Source: a virus (taxonomy: Duplodnaviria > Caudoviricetes). Taken from it: DNA of 64,000 nt. The stretch covers positions 1-64,000 of IMG/VR virus record IMGVR_UViG_3300033074_001483; one strand, written 5' to 3'. How positions within the stretch are numbered: position 1 is the first letter of the stretch; each line of letters begins with the position of its first letter. Position numbers and translations under genes: made by a program. Shown one piece after another: positions 3,283 through 59,933 of this stretch. Below the pieces are notes generated by a model. The model ran no database searches, was not told where the DNA came from, and saw only the letters and a program-made list of their open reading frames with translations.

Positions 3283-4347
3283 TTAAAAAGTGTCTGTTCC
3301 GGCAAATAATCCACTCGAAATAGCGTTCATTAAAGGAGCTGACGGGGATGTGTTGATGACCAAAACTTCGTGAGATTCTTTCTTTTGAGCTTGTTGCTTT
3401 TGTTCCTCCGTCATCTTCTTCTCAACCACGCCGACTTTCACTTCACGATTTACGCCAATTCGTTTTTCTCCCTGAGAATAGCTATAGTGCCATGTAGGAT
3501 ATTCAAAACGAAACTCTTTATACCATTCTCGGATGGTTGGGCAGTTGTTGTACGACAGAATAAACCCTCCCTTATGTGATTTCAGAAGATCACGTAAAGC
3601 ATCGTGATCAAATCCACGATGATGAATTGGGAAGTTGCAGTTTGGATACAAAGGCTTAAAGAGTTCATTTTTCTTACCCGAATCGGCATCCTCATCCATT
3701 CTCTCATAGTATGGAGGGTCTGCATAAACAAAATCATCGGAGTGTTTCGACATTACTTGTTGAAAGTCTCCCCACTTTACTTTGAGATTTGGGCACTTGA
3801 AGTCTCTTAGACGAGCAATAATTTGTTTATGTACTTTCGCCTTTAGATATACCGACGAAGGCCATCCAAGAAACATTGGTCCGTAGGAGTATTGATGATT
3901 GTAATAGTACATGGCAACAAACTTCAATCGTTTGATGTCATTCTCAAATAAAATCTTATCTCCACGCTTGACAATATCTTTGTGTTGCTCCCACCACTCT
4001 TTGAGTTCTTCCCGAGTCTCGGTAAAGCACGTTTTCGTAGGTTTGTATTCCGCAACAGCGTCGGACAATTCTTTCGGACTTTTCAAAACTAGATTCCAGA
4101 ATTCTACCAGAGGTTGAAAAATGTCGTATCCAACAACCTCTATGTCTGGGCGAATGGTTGCCATATAGAGTTCGAACGATGCTCCACCAATAAACGGGGA
4201 TATGATCCGTTTAACACCTGATGGTACGTGTGGTGCAATCAATTTTGCAGCTTTCGTTTTGCCCCCGGCGTACCTTATGGGAGAATAAATTCGCTTTGGT
4301 TCACTCATAGTCATGCATAAATTATCACATTTCTTTACTATCATCAA
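3283..4347 (-). CDS. dam: D12-class N6-adenine DNA methyltransferase (Dam family)
   Basis: Motifs SPIRYAGGK, ISPFIGGAS and FVYADPPY. The true start may be 4308 or 4314. Confidence 0.9.
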   Translation of the reverse strand: MMIVKKCDNLCMTMSEPKRIYSPIRYAGGKTKAAKLIAPHVPSGVKRIISPFIGGASFELYMATIRPDIEVVGYDIFQPLVEFWNLVLKSPKELSDAVAEYKPTKTCFTETREELKEWWEQHKDIVKRGDKILFENDIKRLKFVAMYYYNHQYSYGPMFLGWPSSVYLKAKVHKQIIARLRDFKCPNLKVKWGDFQQVMSKHSDDFVYADPPYYERMDEDADSGKKNELFKPLYPNCNFPIHHRGFDHDALRDLLKSHKGGFILSYNNCPTIREWYKEFRFEYPTWHYSYSQGEKRIGVNREVKVGVVEKKMTEEQKQQAQKKESHEVLVINTSPSAPLMNAISSGLFAGTDTF

Positions 4348-53419: not shown

Positions 53420-53493
53420 TGGTGGAGCCACGGGGAATCGCACCCCGATCTCAAGTATGCCATACTCGTGTCCTACTGTTGAACGATGGCCCC
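53420..53493 (-). tRNA. tRNA-Ala(GGC), variant elbow
   Basis: G3:U70 identity pair, loop ATGGCAT, D-loop AACAGT and T-loop TGCGATT, CCA. Confidence 0.88.
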
Positions 53494-54881: not shown

Positions 54882-55064
54882 TTATTTTATTCGGTCCTGA
54901 ATATCCTTGGAAGTCAAAGATTTCAATGCTTCCCGGTCCTCTTTTTTGAGGCGATTTACCAAATACCCCGGCTTTTTCGGACCAGTACCCAATGCGGCAT
55001 GAAGAAGCAAACTATCAAAAACTTCTTGTGCTCGGCGTCGTTGTCGTCTAGTCAGTGATGACAT
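54882..55064 (-). CDS. Small basic hypothetical protein
   Basis: MSSLTRRQRRR..., start overlapping the coaD stop. Confidence 0.5.
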   Translation of the reverse strand: MSSLTRRQRRRAQEVFDSLLLHAALGTGPKKPGYLVNRLKKEDREALKSLTSKDIQDRIK

Positions 55065-55503
55065 ATTTTCGGTATTCCTCGGGAGAAATTTTTTCAATTG
55101 CTCTCAATGCGCTGGAACTGATATGTCTCAAATTTGGATTGCAATAAAATGCAACAATCTTGACATAGGGTTCCATACTTCTCAGAAATGCAACGAAATT
55201 TTGTTCGTATTCCAAATCTGCACCGCTGCGGAGTCCACGAACAAGTGTTACATCGTAATCCAAATTCCTTTCAAGACCCCGAATGTAATCGGAAAGTAAT
55301 CCCCCGAATTCATCACTATCCACATCCATATCTTTCAAGAAATTAACAGGAAGAGGGTGAGTAGAAAGTGGTTTTTCTGGATTAACACCACGAGCAACAA
55401 TCACTTTGTCAAAAACTTTAGTTGCCTGTTTGACAACATCTAAATGCCCAACGTGAAAGGGGTTGAACGAACCGGCGTAAACTCCAACTTTTAGTTTGCT
55501 CAT
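55048..55503 (-). CDS. coaD: Phosphopantetheine adenylyltransferase
   Basis: YAGSFNPFHVGH, LVRGLRSGADLEYE and HISSS motifs. Confidence 0.85.
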   Translation of the reverse strand: MSKLKVGVYAGSFNPFHVGHLDVVKQATKVFDKVIVARGVNPEKPLSTHPLPVNFLKDMDVDSDEFGGLLSDYIRGLERNLDYDVTLVRGLRSGADLEYEQNFVAFLRSMEPYVKIVAFYCNPNLRHISSSALRAIEKISPEEYRKYVITD

Positions 55504-56099
55504 ACTTTTACGATTAGTGCTTTATAACTCGGCAAACCCTTGACTCCCATCAATGGTACAATCTTCTCGGGTTTATCTTTGAAAAATTCATCTGTGGCAA
55601 CTTTTGGTCCGGGCCACAAATCCGTTCCGTAATCATCTATCAATACCACTGCACCTTTTTCCAGATGATTGTATATCAATCTTAATGCCGACTCAGTACT
55701 TGTTTTCAAATCACCATCAAGATGTGCGAATGAAATCTTTAACGGAATGTCGGATTCGGTCAACTGTTCAAACCATCCTTTATGGATAATTGGGATAGGA
55801 ACATTATACGATCTGAATGTCAATAGAAAAGACTCTACCGAACTTGACATTTCTCCACCATGACCTTCAGCCCTTGGCAATCCCATAAAGCTATCATAAA
55901 CATGAACGGGACGATTTGTGAGAGCATTTATCATTCTGGCAGTGTAACCCTCATGACATCCAAACTCAACTACATCACCTTCCAAATGCTCGGTTTCCAT
56001 GACATAATGGCAAATGTGTACTATCCGTGAAAAGTCCTGCATTCCAATACAGGACTTCAACATTGTGGCAAGTTTTTGTGATAATGTTTCATCAAACAT
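55500..56099 (-). CDS. TylF/MycF-family SAM-dependent O-methyltransferase
   Basis: LEGDVVEFGC, VYDSFMGLP, KGWFE, FAHLDGDL and GAVVLIDDY motifs. Confidence 0.85.
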   Translation of the reverse strand: MFDETLSQKLATMLKSCIGMQDFSRIVHICHYVMETEHLEGDVVEFGCHEGYTARMINALTNRPVHVYDSFMGLPRAEGHGGEMSSSVESFLLTFRSYNVPIPIIHKGWFEQLTESDIPLKISFAHLDGDLKTSTESALRLIYNHLEKGAVVLIDDYGTDLWPGPKVATDEFFKDKPEKIVPLMGVKGLPSYKALIVKV

Positions 56100-56100
56100 A

Positions 56101-56487
56101 TTACCACCATAGATGTCGGAACCACTCGGCAAATAATTCTATTCCCGCTTCATAGCGTTTCCAGTTTTTGTCTTGTTCTTCGGCAGTAAGTTTTGAATAC
56201 TTTTCGTTTTCATGATTAAGAGACCAATCAAATGCAAAAATCATTTCGTCCAAGTAATCATCCCATTGTTTAGAAGTCAACTGGCCGGGGAATCCCATAT
56301 TGACTTCTTTGAAGCGAATAAGTCGTGGAAGAATAAACTCCGCAATCACCGAATCCAGACCCCAAGTTTCAGCATCCGAAAACCCTTGGGTTTTCAATTG
56401 TCTAAAATGCTTTTTGTATCGTTTGTCGGTTTTCTCAAGGTATAATGGTTCTTTGAGAGACCAACGACTTGTTAGTTTTTTGCTCAT
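56101..56487 (-). CDS. Hypothetical protein
   Basis: 128-aa ORF in the operon, ending in LFAEWFRHLWW. Confidence 0.65.
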   Translation of the reverse strand: MSKKLTSRWSLKEPLYLEKTDKRYKKHFRQLKTQGFSDAETWGLDSVIAEFILPRLIRFKEVNMGFPGQLTSKQWDDYLDEMIFAFDWSLNHENEKYSKLTAEEQDKNWKRYEAGIELFAEWFRHLWW

Positions 56488-56939
56488 AGTGATGCATATA
56501 GACGACGAAATGCTGCTTCTTCATCCCACGTTCCTCCTGTCAGAACCTCGATACATCTTCCATGTGGGAGTTCAAAATCTGGAACATGATACTTTTCTCT
56601 TCCTCGGATTTCTCCTGTGAAAACATGAATTTCAACAACATCATTTCGTGAACCTTTGAATTCTTCTCGAACATCACGATACGGATTAACTGTTGACACA
56701 ATGACATCAATTCCTTGATCTGCTATATGTGCTACAAACCGTTGGAGAGCACGAGTCTGTTCAATACGATATTCTTTGGTGAAATTTTCAGGTTTGTCGT
56801 AAGGAACAGCAAAGATTTTTCGGAGGTTATCACCATCAAGATGGAGAACTGCTGAACCTTTGGCACGCAATTCAGAAGCGAGTCGTTTTGCCAATGTAGT
56901 CTTGCCACAACCGGGTTGTCCTATAAACCAGTAAATCAT
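56484..56939 (-). CDS. cysC: Adenylylsulfate kinase-like P-loop kinase
   Basis: WFIGQPGCGKTTLA, LDGDNLR, VIVSTVNPYRDVRE; shorter than typical CysC. TTGACT-16-TATAAT promoter upstream (about 56946-56973). Confidence 0.7.
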   Translation of the reverse strand: MIYWFIGQPGCGKTTLAKRLASELRAKGSAVLHLDGDNLRKIFAVPYDKPENFTKEYRIEQTRALQRFVAHIADQGIDVIVSTVNPYRDVREEFKGSRNDVVEIHVFTGEIRGREKYHVPDFELPHGRCIEVLTGGTWDEEAAFRRLYASL

Positions 56940-56981
56940 GCCGTTATTATAGCATGGATACTATTGAAGTCAAGTGGAAAG

Positions 56982-57055
56982 TGGTGGAGCTAAAGGGAAT
57001 TGAACCCTTATCTTCGCAGTGCGAGTGCGATGTCCTGCCGTTGAACGACAGCCCC
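56982..57055 (-). tRNA. tRNA-Ala(CGC)
   Basis: G3:U70, TCGCA-CTCGCAC-TGCGA, TTCAATT, CCA. Confidence 0.92.
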
Positions 57056-57437
57056 ATTCGGGCAACTTGTCAGTCACCCACGATGTTACTCGTTATCCAA
57101 ACCTATTTCTACGAGCTGCACGTAGATGCCAGTCTTGACCCTACCTCGGAACCTCGGTCAATCCTATAGCACGTTACTACAACAAAAGCCGCCGTTCCGC
57201 AGCGACGTGTCAGTTTAGAAATTCGGTGCTCATGGTCTGCTTATAGTACTCTGGAGGTCTCGCAGAAGCCCTGACCCAGACACGAGCAAAATATCGTTTG
57301 CAGATCGTATCGTCGAACGATACGCTGTGCAAACGGAAAAATGGTGAGATGGGCAGTGCAAACTGCTTTCTACAGGGGGGACGGCACCACGTCTGTCCCT
57401 TATGGAGTACTCCTTTCGGGACGCCCATCTCATTCTG
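57056..57437 (-). ncRNA. Unassigned structured RNA (about 380 nt) between RNase P RNA and tRNA-Ala(CGC)
   Basis: GAGATGGGC/GCCCATCTC multibranch domain, GTTTGCA..CGTATCG-TTCGA-CGATACG..TGCAAAC hairpin, TGCTC.GTG.TCTG/CAGA.CAT.GAGCA, TTGACC/GGTCAA, CTACG/CGTAG. Confidence 0.6.
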
Positions 57438-57728
57438 TTTTTGTCGCAGCCGTAGCCGCAATTCTGTTCTATCTCTACATTTTTCTCAAGGTCAACCATA
57501 CGGTTGCCAAGTCCCTCACGGGATGCCTCAACCCGGGCTTTACAATGGGAAGCACTACCCTTTGCCCTGTTTGAGTTGCTGTTACTTTGTGGTGTTAACG
57601 AATGGTTTGCCCACGGTCAAGAGGGCGTCGGTAAAGACCCATTCTCCCAAACAGCTGCTTTACAGTTGCGAACTTCCTCTGGTTGCTCCTGTTCAGGCGG
57701 AACCAGCGTAGAGTCGCTTACGACAAAA
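57438..57728 (-). ncRNA. rnpB: RNase P RNA (compact, about 290 nt, reduced specificity domain)
   Basis: Manually mapped on the bacterial consensus: P1 TTTTGTCG/CGACAAAA, P2 CTCTAC/GTAGAG, P3 CTGGTT/AACCAG, P4 AG(T)TCGCAA/TTGCGGCT with bulged U after GAGGA and ACAGAA before the 3' strand, P5 CTGT/ACAG, J5/15 CAA, P15 CTCA/TGAG with L15 GGGT, P16 GGGC/GCCC, P6 AAGCA/TGCTT, P18-like hairpin. Confidence 0.88.
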
Positions 57729-57731
57729 TTC

Positions 57732-57775
57732 TCAAAGAACTGGTGGTACGATACCACACTTCGTCAAAATGTCAA
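57732..57775 (-). promoter_or_regulatory. Sigma70-like promoter plus boxA-like motif for the rnpB operon
   Basis: TTGACA-16-(TGG)TATCGT, then AGTTCTTTGAG 3 nt before P1. Confidence 0.6.
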
Positions 57776-57780
57776 CCTTT

Positions 57781-58137
57781 TTATGGGATGACTGCACCTT
57801 GCCCCGGTGCTGGAGGGGGAGTAACCACTGGTGGAGTTACAACTGGAGGCGTAACCACTGGTGGTTGAGTATTGACTCCTGTTTTATTCTCCAAAAATCG
57901 TCTTGCTGTATAAGTTCCACAGAGGACCAGAGTTACATAAACATATGGTTCTGGTACATCGGCAAGTTTGTCCGTTTTGAAAGTGACGTATCCGATAAGT
58001 GTCATAAAGAACACCATCCATATGAGAAACATCAGTCCTGTGCGGGACATTCTTCCTCGGTGGTCCAAGAGTAGTTCGATTGGTTTTGCCATATGTGATA
58101 AAAGTTGGTGCTGCCTATCAGATTCGAACTGATACAT
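57781..58137 (-). CDS. Two-TM membrane protein (holin-like) with a PPVVT-repeat tail
   Basis: Two hydrophobic helices and C-terminal (PPVVT)x3. Confidence 0.5.
   Translation of the reverse strand: MYQFESDRQHQLLSHMAKPIELLLDHRGRMSRTGLMFLIWMVFFMTLIGYVTFKTDKLADVPEPYVYVTLVLCGTYTARRFLENKTGVNTQPPVVTPPVVTPPVVTPPPAPGQGAVIP
57820..57866 (-). repeat. Three tandem 15-nt repeats encoding PPVVT
   Basis: Plus-strand ggagtaaccactggt/ggagttacaactgga/ggcgtaaccactggt. Confidence 0.8.
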
Positions 58138-58205
58138 TCTACCTTCTCAGGGTAGCGACTCCTTCCAGTTGGTCTAAGGCAGCGTTTGACTATCTATAAA
58201 TAGTT

Positions 58206-58562
58206 TTAGAACCCCTGTTCCGACTCACGAAATTTCTTGATGTCTTCTAGCAATCCTTCTCGGTCATCACGGTATTTCTGAATCATGTAGGCAAATCCCT
58301 CACGGTCTTCTTCCTCCACCATTTCTGTAACGAATCTGGCAATGTCTTCGTCGGAGGGTTGCCAGTCAAACTCTTCACAAACAGCGGCGATTTTGGTTCC
58401 CATCGGGGTCATGTTGAATGCACATTCTACAAGACCAAGCTTTTGAATTTGGTCAAGGTAATGGATAATCATCATTACCGAAATGGTTTGGGTTGGTTCT
58501 TCAAACACACCCTCTAACTTGAGGCGTTCGAGAATTGCCTTTACTGTTTCGTCAATTGTCAT
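58206..58562 (-). CDS. Acidic hypothetical protein
   Basis: 118-aa ORF with its own promoter. Confidence 0.65.
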   Translation of the reverse strand: MTIDETVKAILERLKLEGVFEEPTQTISVMMIIHYLDQIQKLGLVECAFNMTPMGTKIAAVCEEFDWQPSDEDIARFVTEMVEEEDREGFAYMIQKYRDDREGLLEDIKKFRESEQGF

Positions 58563-59859: not shown

Positions 59860-59933
59860 TGGTGGGCCATGATGGTTACGCTCCATCGTCTCATCAGTGT
59901 CAGTGATGAATTCTACTATTAAACTAACAGCCC
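59860..59933 (-). tRNA. tRNA-Val(GAC), variant elbow
   Basis: GGGCTGT/ATGGCCC, CATCA-CTGACAC-TGATG, D-loop AATAGT, T-arm GATGG-AGCGTAA-CCATC, A73, CCA. Confidence 0.85.

Follow-up and report, generated by a model that had tools for sequence, protein, structure and literature searches.

A divergent RNase P RNA without a specificity domain in the tRNA arrays of jumbo phages

The locus and the fold of the RNA

The stretch of DNA analysed here (the window) comprises the first 64 kb of an 85.5-kb viral record of IMG/VR (IMGVR_UViG_3300033074_001483), for which CheckV estimates a completeness of approximately 24%. On its minus strand, which also bears the promoter, the CCA-ended RNA and the tRNA genes described below, it encodes an RNA of 290 nt that extends from the 5' strand to the 3' strand of helix P1 (57439-57728) and is in all likelihood a minimal RNase P RNA. 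The proteins encoded in the window include baseplate-wedge and tail proteins and an SbcCD-like nuclease, and the complete record carries 40 tRNA genes, every one of them on the minus strand. The number of tRNA genes together with the tail and baseplate genes indicates that the record is a fragment of the genome of a jumbo, tRNA-rich tailed phage.

A sigma-70-type promoter (57748-57775) is located approximately 13-20 nt upstream of P1. It consists of TTGACA, a 16-nt spacer, TATCGT and the TG of an extended -10 element and matches the consensus at 10 of 12 positions; pairs of TTGACA and -10 elements were also recognised by eye at the equivalent place in the related loci L007, L010 and L011. In nearly all contigs that possess a member of the RNA family described below, the ribozyme lies within a tRNA array, and the tRNAs within 3 kb are all encoded on the ribozyme strand. 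The 3' strand of P1 is followed by a tRNA within 5-15 nt in L020, L023, L034, L037, L038, L058 and L059, and the tRNA directly after the family ribozyme is often a tRNA-Ala(GGC).

The fold of the RNA was examined with an alignment of 23 family sequences, for which the proposed helices P1-P6, P15, P16 and P17 were written down and the pairs counted; 3' partners slid by 1-3 columns and 500 shuffles served as controls. Standard pairs occupy 93.0% of the cells, in contrast to 32-49% with the slid partners, and changes on both sides occur at 29 of the 50 pairs. The covariation score of 0.455 (0.06-0.10 with slid partners) was reached by none of the 500 shuffles. Throughout the alignment, invariant blocks alternate with hairpins of variable length, and insertions and deletions are confined to P3, to the position of the specificity domain (S-domain) and to the P18 position. 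An initial annotation of this DNA had placed the RNA at 57438-57728, and its helix boundaries agree exactly with those found here, as does the distance of 73 nt from the 5' strand of P6 to the 3' strand of P5 (57655-57583).

At the 5' end, the first strand of P1 (UUUUGUCGU, then AGC; 57716-57728) pairs with 57439-57450, and seven of the twelve pairs have changed on both sides within the family (GUCG/CGAC, GACAC/GUGUC, CUAG/CUAG). P2 (CUCUAC, 57708-57713, with GUAGAG, 57473-57478) is paired in 100% of the cells, occurs in seven sequence variants and has compensatory changes at four of six pairs. The same proportion of compensatory pairs is found in the P3 hairpin (57679-57706), which varies in length over the family and is 97% paired. 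Joining segment J3/4 and the 5' strand of P4 with its bulged U constitute the conserved region CR-I (GAGGAAGUUCGCAA, 57666-57679), where G54-G64 are invariant; the E. coli counterpart reads GAGGAAAGUCCGGG. Next to it, the 5' strand of P5 (CUGU, 57662-57665) pairs with ACAG (57579-57582; 100% paired, three of four pairs compensatory), and that of P6 (AGCA, 57656-57659) would form a pseudoknot with UGCU (57551-57554) in the loop of P17.

The 3' half starts with J5/15 (CAA, 57576-57578), the counterpart of E. coli C247-A248-A249, in which A156 and A157 are invariant and which Rfam aligns to GCAAG in the related locus L020. It is followed by the P15-P16-P17 arm (57527-57575), with compensatory changes at two of three pairs in P15, four of four in P16 and two of three in P17, the latter being paired in 100% of the cells. 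On the 3' side of loop L15 (GGGUU, 57530-57534) lies an invariant GGU (G200, G201, U202), which is the counterpart of E. coli G292-G293-U294, the nucleotides that pair with the 3'-CCA of the tRNA. The arm typical of type-A RNAs, the GGU of L15 and a P6 pseudoknot with the loop of P17 are all present. Two hairpins at the P18 position (57487-57524), the first with a GUGA loop, are dispensable, as they are missing from L020, L025, L029, L030, L038 and L058. The remaining segment (57454-57486) consists of the invariant columns of CR-IV (AGAAAAAUG), the 3' strand of P2, J2/4 with CR-V (AUAGAACAGAA) and the 3' strand of P4 (UUGCGGCU), and corresponds to AGAUGAAUG-ACUGU-CCACGACAGAA-CCCGGCUU in E. coli. 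CR-I and CR-V therefore pair to a P4 helix that has a bulged U and is flanked by conserved adenines (J3/4, ACAGAA). It is paired in 99.5% of the cells, its three distal base pairs are all compensatory, and its core (GAGGAAGUUCG, C267, A270, A271 and CGGCUA) is invariant over the family.

Homology to bacterial RNase P RNAs and loss of the specificity domain

A scan of the window with Rfam at the gathering score returned tRNAs only and no RNase P. However, the sequences GAGGAAGUUCGCAAC and ACAGAAUUGCGGCUA on the minus strand resemble CR-I and CR-V and can pair as a P4 helix with a bulged U, and since these blocks were seen despite the lack of an Rfam match, comparative data were sought. Loci of relatives were fetched via the neighbouring gene for an adenosine 5'-phosphosulfate (APS)-kinase-like protein and revealed a non-coding stretch that is conserved in seven viral contigs (nhmmer E-values of 1e-26 to 1e-45). 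The pattern GAGGAAGTTCGNNNCNNNANAGCAG is present in 42 contigs of IMG/VR, the largest of which has 365 kb, and in at least 120 metagenome contigs; 67 of the 80 metagenome contigs that were fetched contain true members according to a profile hidden Markov model (E ≤ 5e-14), with lengths of 173-400 nt. A coding region was considered and rejected, as there is no convincing open reading frame (ORF) on either strand between approximately 57056 and 57790. Since the genome makes use of all three stop codons, a recoded genetic code is unlikely, and the insertions and deletions between homologs are not multiples of three and are located in hairpins. Folding of the single sequence was uninformative (z = -2.1 for the plus strand and -1.3 for the minus strand).

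The relatives connect the family to known RNase P RNAs. L020 matches RF00010 (RNaseP_bact_a) with 44.1 bits (E 1.9e-10), L038 matches RF00373 (RNaseP_arch) with 47.1 bits (E 3.3e-10) and L059 an Rfam RNase P model with 25 bits (E 0.003), in each case at the exact family coordinates and over the whole model. All these scores are below the Rfam gathering scores of 84-100 bits, and no member reaches the threshold of RF00010 (100 bits), for which L020 with 44 bits is the best member and the window copy gives no match. Searched on its own, the RNA of the window finds L038 (E 5.8e-19) and L020 (E 7.6e-16), and a profile built without these two sequences recovers both at E ≤ 1e-37. In the Rfam alignment of L020, P1-P3, CR-I, P5, GCAAG of J5/15, CAAAUAG...GGGUA of L15, CR-IV and CR-V are all matched. 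The initial annotation had made its reading depend on an RNase P covariance-model match; taken literally, the window copy fails here, but the comparative data overturn this outcome.

The connection was also found in the opposite direction. A covariance half-model of the 3' half, which was built from the minimal family alone and searched over 68 kb, gave four matches, each of which falls, in the right orientation, within a phage RNase P RNA verified by Rfam (L114, E 4.8e-5; L126, E 0.026; L145, E 0.16; L153, E 0.22). A block-by-block comparison with the rnpB sequence of E. coli showed a counterpart for each conserved block of the catalytic domain; rnpB was neither recovered by the sequence-only family profile nor reached by the half-model at E ≤ 1. 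BLAST searches against GenBank phages gave no match for the window region or L020. Among approximately 185,000 prokaryote species (one genome each), we detected a single true member on a 203-kb contig that was binned with a Cellvibrionaceae metagenome-assembled genome, and this is the only hint of a host; the remaining 15 of the 16 motif matches in bacterial genomes were rejected as chance matches in GC-rich coding sequence. Two members look damaged: in L047:4197-4507 (minus strand), neither CR-V nor the 3' strand of P4 can be recognised behind CR-IV, and in L213:1547-1777 (minus strand) the P4 3' strand (UUCUGGCU) is no longer complementary to its 5' strand.

With the bacterial type-A RNAs (RF00010, E. 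coli M1), the family shares the order and pairing of P1-P5, the P6 pseudoknot and P15-P16-P17. P4 is 8 bp long, and its bulged U follows the third pair, so that both its length and the position of the bulge equal those of M1. CR-I, the CAA of J5/15, the GGU of L15, CR-IV (AGAnnAAUG) and CR-V (ACAGAA..GGCU(U)A) are shared as well. In contrast to type A, the family lacks P7-P14, P18 is optional, the total length ranges from 173 to 423 nt, and P4 reads AAGUU/GGCU instead of AAAGU/GCUU. It also differs from type A in being phage-encoded within tRNA arrays and in scoring far below the Rfam gathering score.

The archaeal type T RNAs of Pyrobaculum and its relatives have a length of about 200 nt and lack P11, J11/12, J12/13 (CR-II and CR-III) and P12 (PMC7191817). 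According to P Finder, S-domain-less type T is limited to the Thermoproteaceae (PMC7191817). The phage RNA resembles type T (RF02357) in being a natural small RNase P RNA without the module that reads the T-loop. However, type T has archaeal sequence and archaeal protein partners, whereas the phage RNA is derived from a bacterial type-A catalytic domain, and its minimal members additionally lack P8 and P9. The type T model gave no match at E ≤ 10, and the core blocks agree with the consensus of bacterial type A. Engineered "mini" RNase P RNAs of E. coli and B. subtilis, which consist of the catalytic domain only, cleave pre-tRNA together with the protein subunit. In contrast to these laboratory constructs, the phage family is natural, widespread and under selection.

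The S-domain (P7-P14) with the T-loop module of CR-II and CR-III is absent from the window RNA. This agrees with the initial annotation, which had described a shrunken S-domain in which P8/P9 and this module could not be found: when Rfam itself aligns L020, it leaves gaps for the consensus blocks of the S-domain and for P18, and the minimal members likewise possess a stub only. Between the two strands of P5 there are 79 nt in the window RNA and 30-40 nt in the minimal members, compared to about 165 nt in E. coli. The 79 nt consist of the 5' strand of P6, a conserved UUGGGAG, a stem with about 33 non-conserved nucleotides and the conserved GUUAACACCACAAAGUA. The stem (GAAUGG/CCAUUC, 57600-57644) stands where E. 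coli has P7-P14 (about 156 nt), and this insert on its own folds no better than shuffled sequence (z = 0.06). At the same position, L003, L007, L029, L038 and L058 have a bare hairpin of 4-5 bp, and in other members unrelated sequence of up to about 150 nt is inserted. Since the members with long inserts (L002, L012, L022, L023 and L024) gave no RNase P score at all, these inserts are not cryptic S-domains.

The single-stranded block GUUAACACCACAAAGUA (57583-57599), with its near-invariant columns, resembles the stretch GGUAAACUCCACCC on the 3' side of P7 in E. coli, and in the half-model it is aligned with the ACCCCA of L126, a full-length RNase P RNA of phage origin. Together with UUGGGAG (57644-57650) it may form a P7-like stub. 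However, as both strands of a pairing between UUGGG and CC(A)CAA are invariant, we do not claim such a helix. We also considered an S-domain supplied in trans by the RNA downstream of the ribozyme (see below) and rejected it as a general solution, because most members do not possess that RNA and it gave no RNase P score. In L011 (2830-2975; the same in L039), the insert contains an ORF of 47 codons with two CxxC pairs (MKWPIQKQDIFVSCPKCSHK...CPDC...), which would encode a zinc-ribbon-like mini-protein and reads into the conserved GUUAACACCAC block; it may have arisen by chance or be a nested gene.

Proposed role, tRNA substrates and rival explanations

The RNA of the window is almost certainly an RNase P RNA that belongs, although divergent, to the bacterial type-A lineage, comprises the catalytic domain only and is encoded by a clade of jumbo phages. 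The initial annotation had already read it as an RNase P RNA with a bacterial catalytic domain, and the Rfam matches of the relatives, the covariation and the correspondence to E. coli bear this out. Homology, fold, conservation, genomic context and the loss of the S-domain are the observations in which this assignment is grounded. With regard to its role, we infer catalytic activity, substrates and a protein partner: judged from the sequences, the RNA probably serves the 5' maturation of CCA-bearing phage pre-tRNAs together with the RnpA protein of the host, and is anchored by the contact between L15 and CCA instead of by the tRNA elbow. The ribozyme would be transcribed from its own sigma-70-type promoter, within and co-oriented with the phage tRNA array, and as the catalytic subunit it would remove the 5' leaders of the phage pre-tRNAs and of the neighbouring CCA-ended tRNA-like RNA. 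Catalysis would be provided by the P4 core with the bulged U, J3/4, J5/15, CR-IV and CR-V, and the genome-encoded 3'-CCA of the substrates would be bound by the invariant GGU of L15. Such a contact would replace the anchoring at the elbow which is normally given by the S-domain. Isolated bacterial catalytic domains cleave pre-tRNA in the presence of the RNase P protein, and the archaeal type T RNA is active although it lacks the S-domain.

Several observations weigh against this reading. No Rfam RNase P match was obtained for the region 56800-58400 at E ≤ 10, and neither did RF00010, RF00011, RF00373 and RF02357, when run singly on the complete record, give a match at E ≤ 10. In P4, the pairs A67-U359 and G68-C358 of E. 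coli, which are near-universal bases, are replaced by G-C and U-G. P6 (AGCA/UGCU) is paired in 100% of the cells and invariant and therefore shows no covariation, so that it is its position and the analogy with type A that argue for this helix; covariation is absent from the P7-like stub as well. Concerning the protein cofactor, searches for RnpA (PF00825) in the 85-kb record and in five records of related phages, one of them of 365 kb and rated 100% complete, gave no match, and a HARP-type PIN_5 domain was not found either. Since no phage rnpA was detected, RnpA of the host is the presumed cofactor.

As to the possible substrates, 33 of the 40 tRNAs of the record have the canonical UUCRA T-loop. 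Five carry G55 (T-loop UGCGA or AGCGU), two of them in the window (53420-53493 and 59860-59933) and three at positions 74596-74670, 75548-75622 and 78438-78511 of the record, and four of the five also have A for G18. These variants retain G19 and C56, which constitute the outer platform of the elbow. CCA is encoded by 39 of the 40 tRNA genes. Within the phages of the minimal family, 46 of 390 distinct tRNAs (11.8%) have G55, which in 42 cases is combined with the lack of the D-loop GG, and 94% of the tRNAs have an encoded CCA. In contrast, G55, alone or with lack of GG, occurs in none of the 237 tRNAs of phages with other RNase P RNAs, neither in those with full-length (136 distinct tRNAs, 38% with CCA), nor with intermediate (49, 82%), nor with otherwise reduced RNAs (52, 10%). 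For G55 in the minimal family versus the full-length group, Fisher's exact test gave p = 6.5e-7, a value which ignores the kinship between these related phages. All tRNAs of L029 (18/18) and L045 (16/16) are elbow variants, and these loci belong to the lineage with the smallest ribozyme; L020, L037, L038 and L058 are among the many members without a variant tRNA in the fetched loci. The elbow-variant tRNAs noted initially alongside the ribozyme are hence real and co-occur with the minimal family, a relation that amounts to an association.

A further candidate substrate is located directly downstream of the ribozyme. This cloverleaf-like RNA of about 95 nt (57335-57432) has a four-way junction and a closing stem of 9-10 bp followed by (A)CCA (fold z = -3.66), and neither ARAGORN nor Rfam calls a tRNA there. 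It takes the place that is held by a normal tRNA-Ala in other family members. The CCA-ended RNA is probably a substrate of RNase P, and its 5' cleavage would also trim the 3' end of the ribozyme. It contains the conserved module CCCGAAAGGAGUACUCCAUAAGGG, and a counterpart is also present in L002, L003, L010 and L011.

The distribution of the variant tRNAs raises the question of how specialised the ribozyme might be. In line with the initial annotation, one could assume that it has co-evolved with the A18/G55 tRNAs and processes them preferentially or even exclusively, because an elbow-checking RNase P of the host handles them poorly. The restriction of G55 to the loci of the family, the two loci with variant tRNAs only and the near-universal CCA, which suits an enzyme relying on the acceptor end, speak for such a private maturation. 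However, the association was computed over related phages, most tRNAs of the record have a canonical elbow, many members lack variant tRNAs in their fetched loci, and the variants keep G19 and C56, so that we consider this scenario rather doubtful. The same caution applies to the narrower statement that the ribozyme serves elbow-variant tRNAs selectively, which is tentative since it is correlative only. An orthogonal supply line, in which CCA-encoding tRNAs with a rebuilt elbow (A18/G55 for G18/psi55) are matured by a phage ribozyme that has given up the elbow and reads only the acceptor end, is likewise conceivable at best. If it were true, the phage would keep making functional tRNAs that are unseen by host enzymes or by host defences that target tRNAs. 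Alternatively, the RNA could be a dedicated processor of substrates other than tRNAs, namely the neighbouring CCA-ended RNA, the tmRNA of the phage or the junctions between mRNA and tRNA in long transcripts. This would fit the conserved structured ACCA-ended RNA directly after the ribozyme in the clade of the window, and the tmRNA genes nearby in relatives, but in most members an ordinary tRNA follows and the ACCA-ended element is lacking. As the tRNA array is the sole family-wide context, we regard such a dedication as unlikely.

Two other explanations dispense with a processing function altogether. A catalytically weak or dead RNA could bind RnpA of the host and thereby block host tRNA maturation or redirect the protein. 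Such a decoy would be compatible with the lack of a detectable phage rnpA, with the conservation of the P2/P3 side, CR-IV and CR-V, to which the protein binds in bacterial enzymes, and with the non-consensus base pairs in P4. However, it would have no need for the invariant GGU in L15, the adenines of J5/15, the bulged U of P4 or the covarying P15-P17 arm, and the placement in co-oriented tRNA arrays with a tRNA directly after the ribozyme points to processing, which makes a decoy quite improbable. That the RNA is a decaying, functionless fragment of a captured host rnpB might be suggested by the failure of every Rfam model to detect the window copy and by the loss of large parts of the ancestral RNA. 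This reading is already contradicted by the covariation, as nine helices are kept by compensatory changes over more than 100 contigs. The core blocks are invariant, the RNA has its own conserved promoter, and a member is present in just one of the species genomes searched, and we therefore give hardly any credence to decay. The preferred reading thus remains that of a ribozyme for the 5' maturation of the CCA-bearing tRNAs of the phage.

Genomic neighbours, other phage RNase P RNAs and implications

Upstream of the ribozyme promoter lies an ORF of 118 amino acids (57781-58137, minus strand) with a hydrophobic segment and a C-terminal PPVVT repeat, for which no family match was found. A further flanking protein (58206-58562) yielded no related loci when used as query. 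On the other side, about 280 nt without an ORF (57056-57334, minus strand) separate the CCA-ended RNA from a tRNA-Ala(CGC), and this stretch contains a terminator-like hairpin (57206-57188). Farther downstream, an operon (55048-56939, minus strand) behind a promoter of the form TTGACT-16-TATAAT (56973-56946) encodes the APS-kinase-like P-loop protein, a protein without a Pfam match, a TylF-type methyltransferase and a cytidylyltransferase-like protein. Genes for transfer-messenger RNA (tmRNA) were observed near phage RNase P RNAs in L022 (9098-9482), L024 (5523-5903), L067 (2665-3087), L088 (4494-4569) and L114 (1-209). L067 additionally contains a match to GOLLD RNA (3317-3761; 113 bits, E 6e-29, under the gathering score).

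The minimal family is not the only RNase P RNA of phages. The canonical motif GAGGAAAGTCCGGGC was detected in 76 stretches of viral DNA, and Rfam identifies those that lie in the tRNA arrays of large phage contigs as RNase P RNAs. Full-length type-A RNAs of 350-358 nt (RF00010, 261-280 bits) are encoded in L099 (800-1149), L145 (6330-6684), L126 (6074-6431) and L150 (536-887), in each case inside the tRNA array of a jumbo-phage contig (114-369 kb). L088 and L092 have intermediate forms, and reduced RNAs of 207-243 nt are found in L127 (10596-10802; 207 nt, 118 bits), L153 (2248-2468) and L114 (5635-5877). Like the minimal family, these RNAs are phage-encoded, lie in dense tRNA arrays and often occur near a tmRNA gene. 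However, they keep the canonical P4 (GAGGAAAGUCCGGGC / ACAGAAYCCGGCUUA), and the reduced RNA of L127 retains a P8-like hairpin and a CR-II-like block. Because the reduced forms keep the canonical P4 and have an architecture different from that of the minimal family, reduction seems to have occurred more than once. BLAST searches with a full-length phage RNase P RNA retrieved only unannotated contigs from faecal metagenomes and probable contaminants. The initial annotation had referred to RNase P RNAs reported in huge phages. In the searchable literature we found no such report and no description of a phage-encoded RNase P RNA, but the RNAs themselves are present in jumbo-phage contigs of IMG/VR.

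Only two ribozymes are universal, and RNase P is one of them; what part its S-domain plays when the tRNA elbow is read is a classic question. To our knowledge, archaeal type T has so far been the sole natural RNase P RNA lacking the S-domain. The phage RNAs described here add a large natural family of bacterial-type RNase P RNAs that comprise the catalytic domain only, are encoded by viruses and in some cases are shorter than 200 nt. This family has mostly been missed by standard annotation, which illustrates that divergent ribozymes escape when viral metagenomes are annotated with covariance models, and it is linked to tRNA sets with changed elbows and near-universal CCA. Together, the phage forms constitute a comparative series that leads from full-length via partly reduced to minimal RNAs. 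With this series one can ask what the S-domain contributes, how small a working RNase P can be, and whether phages possess a private tRNA maturation.

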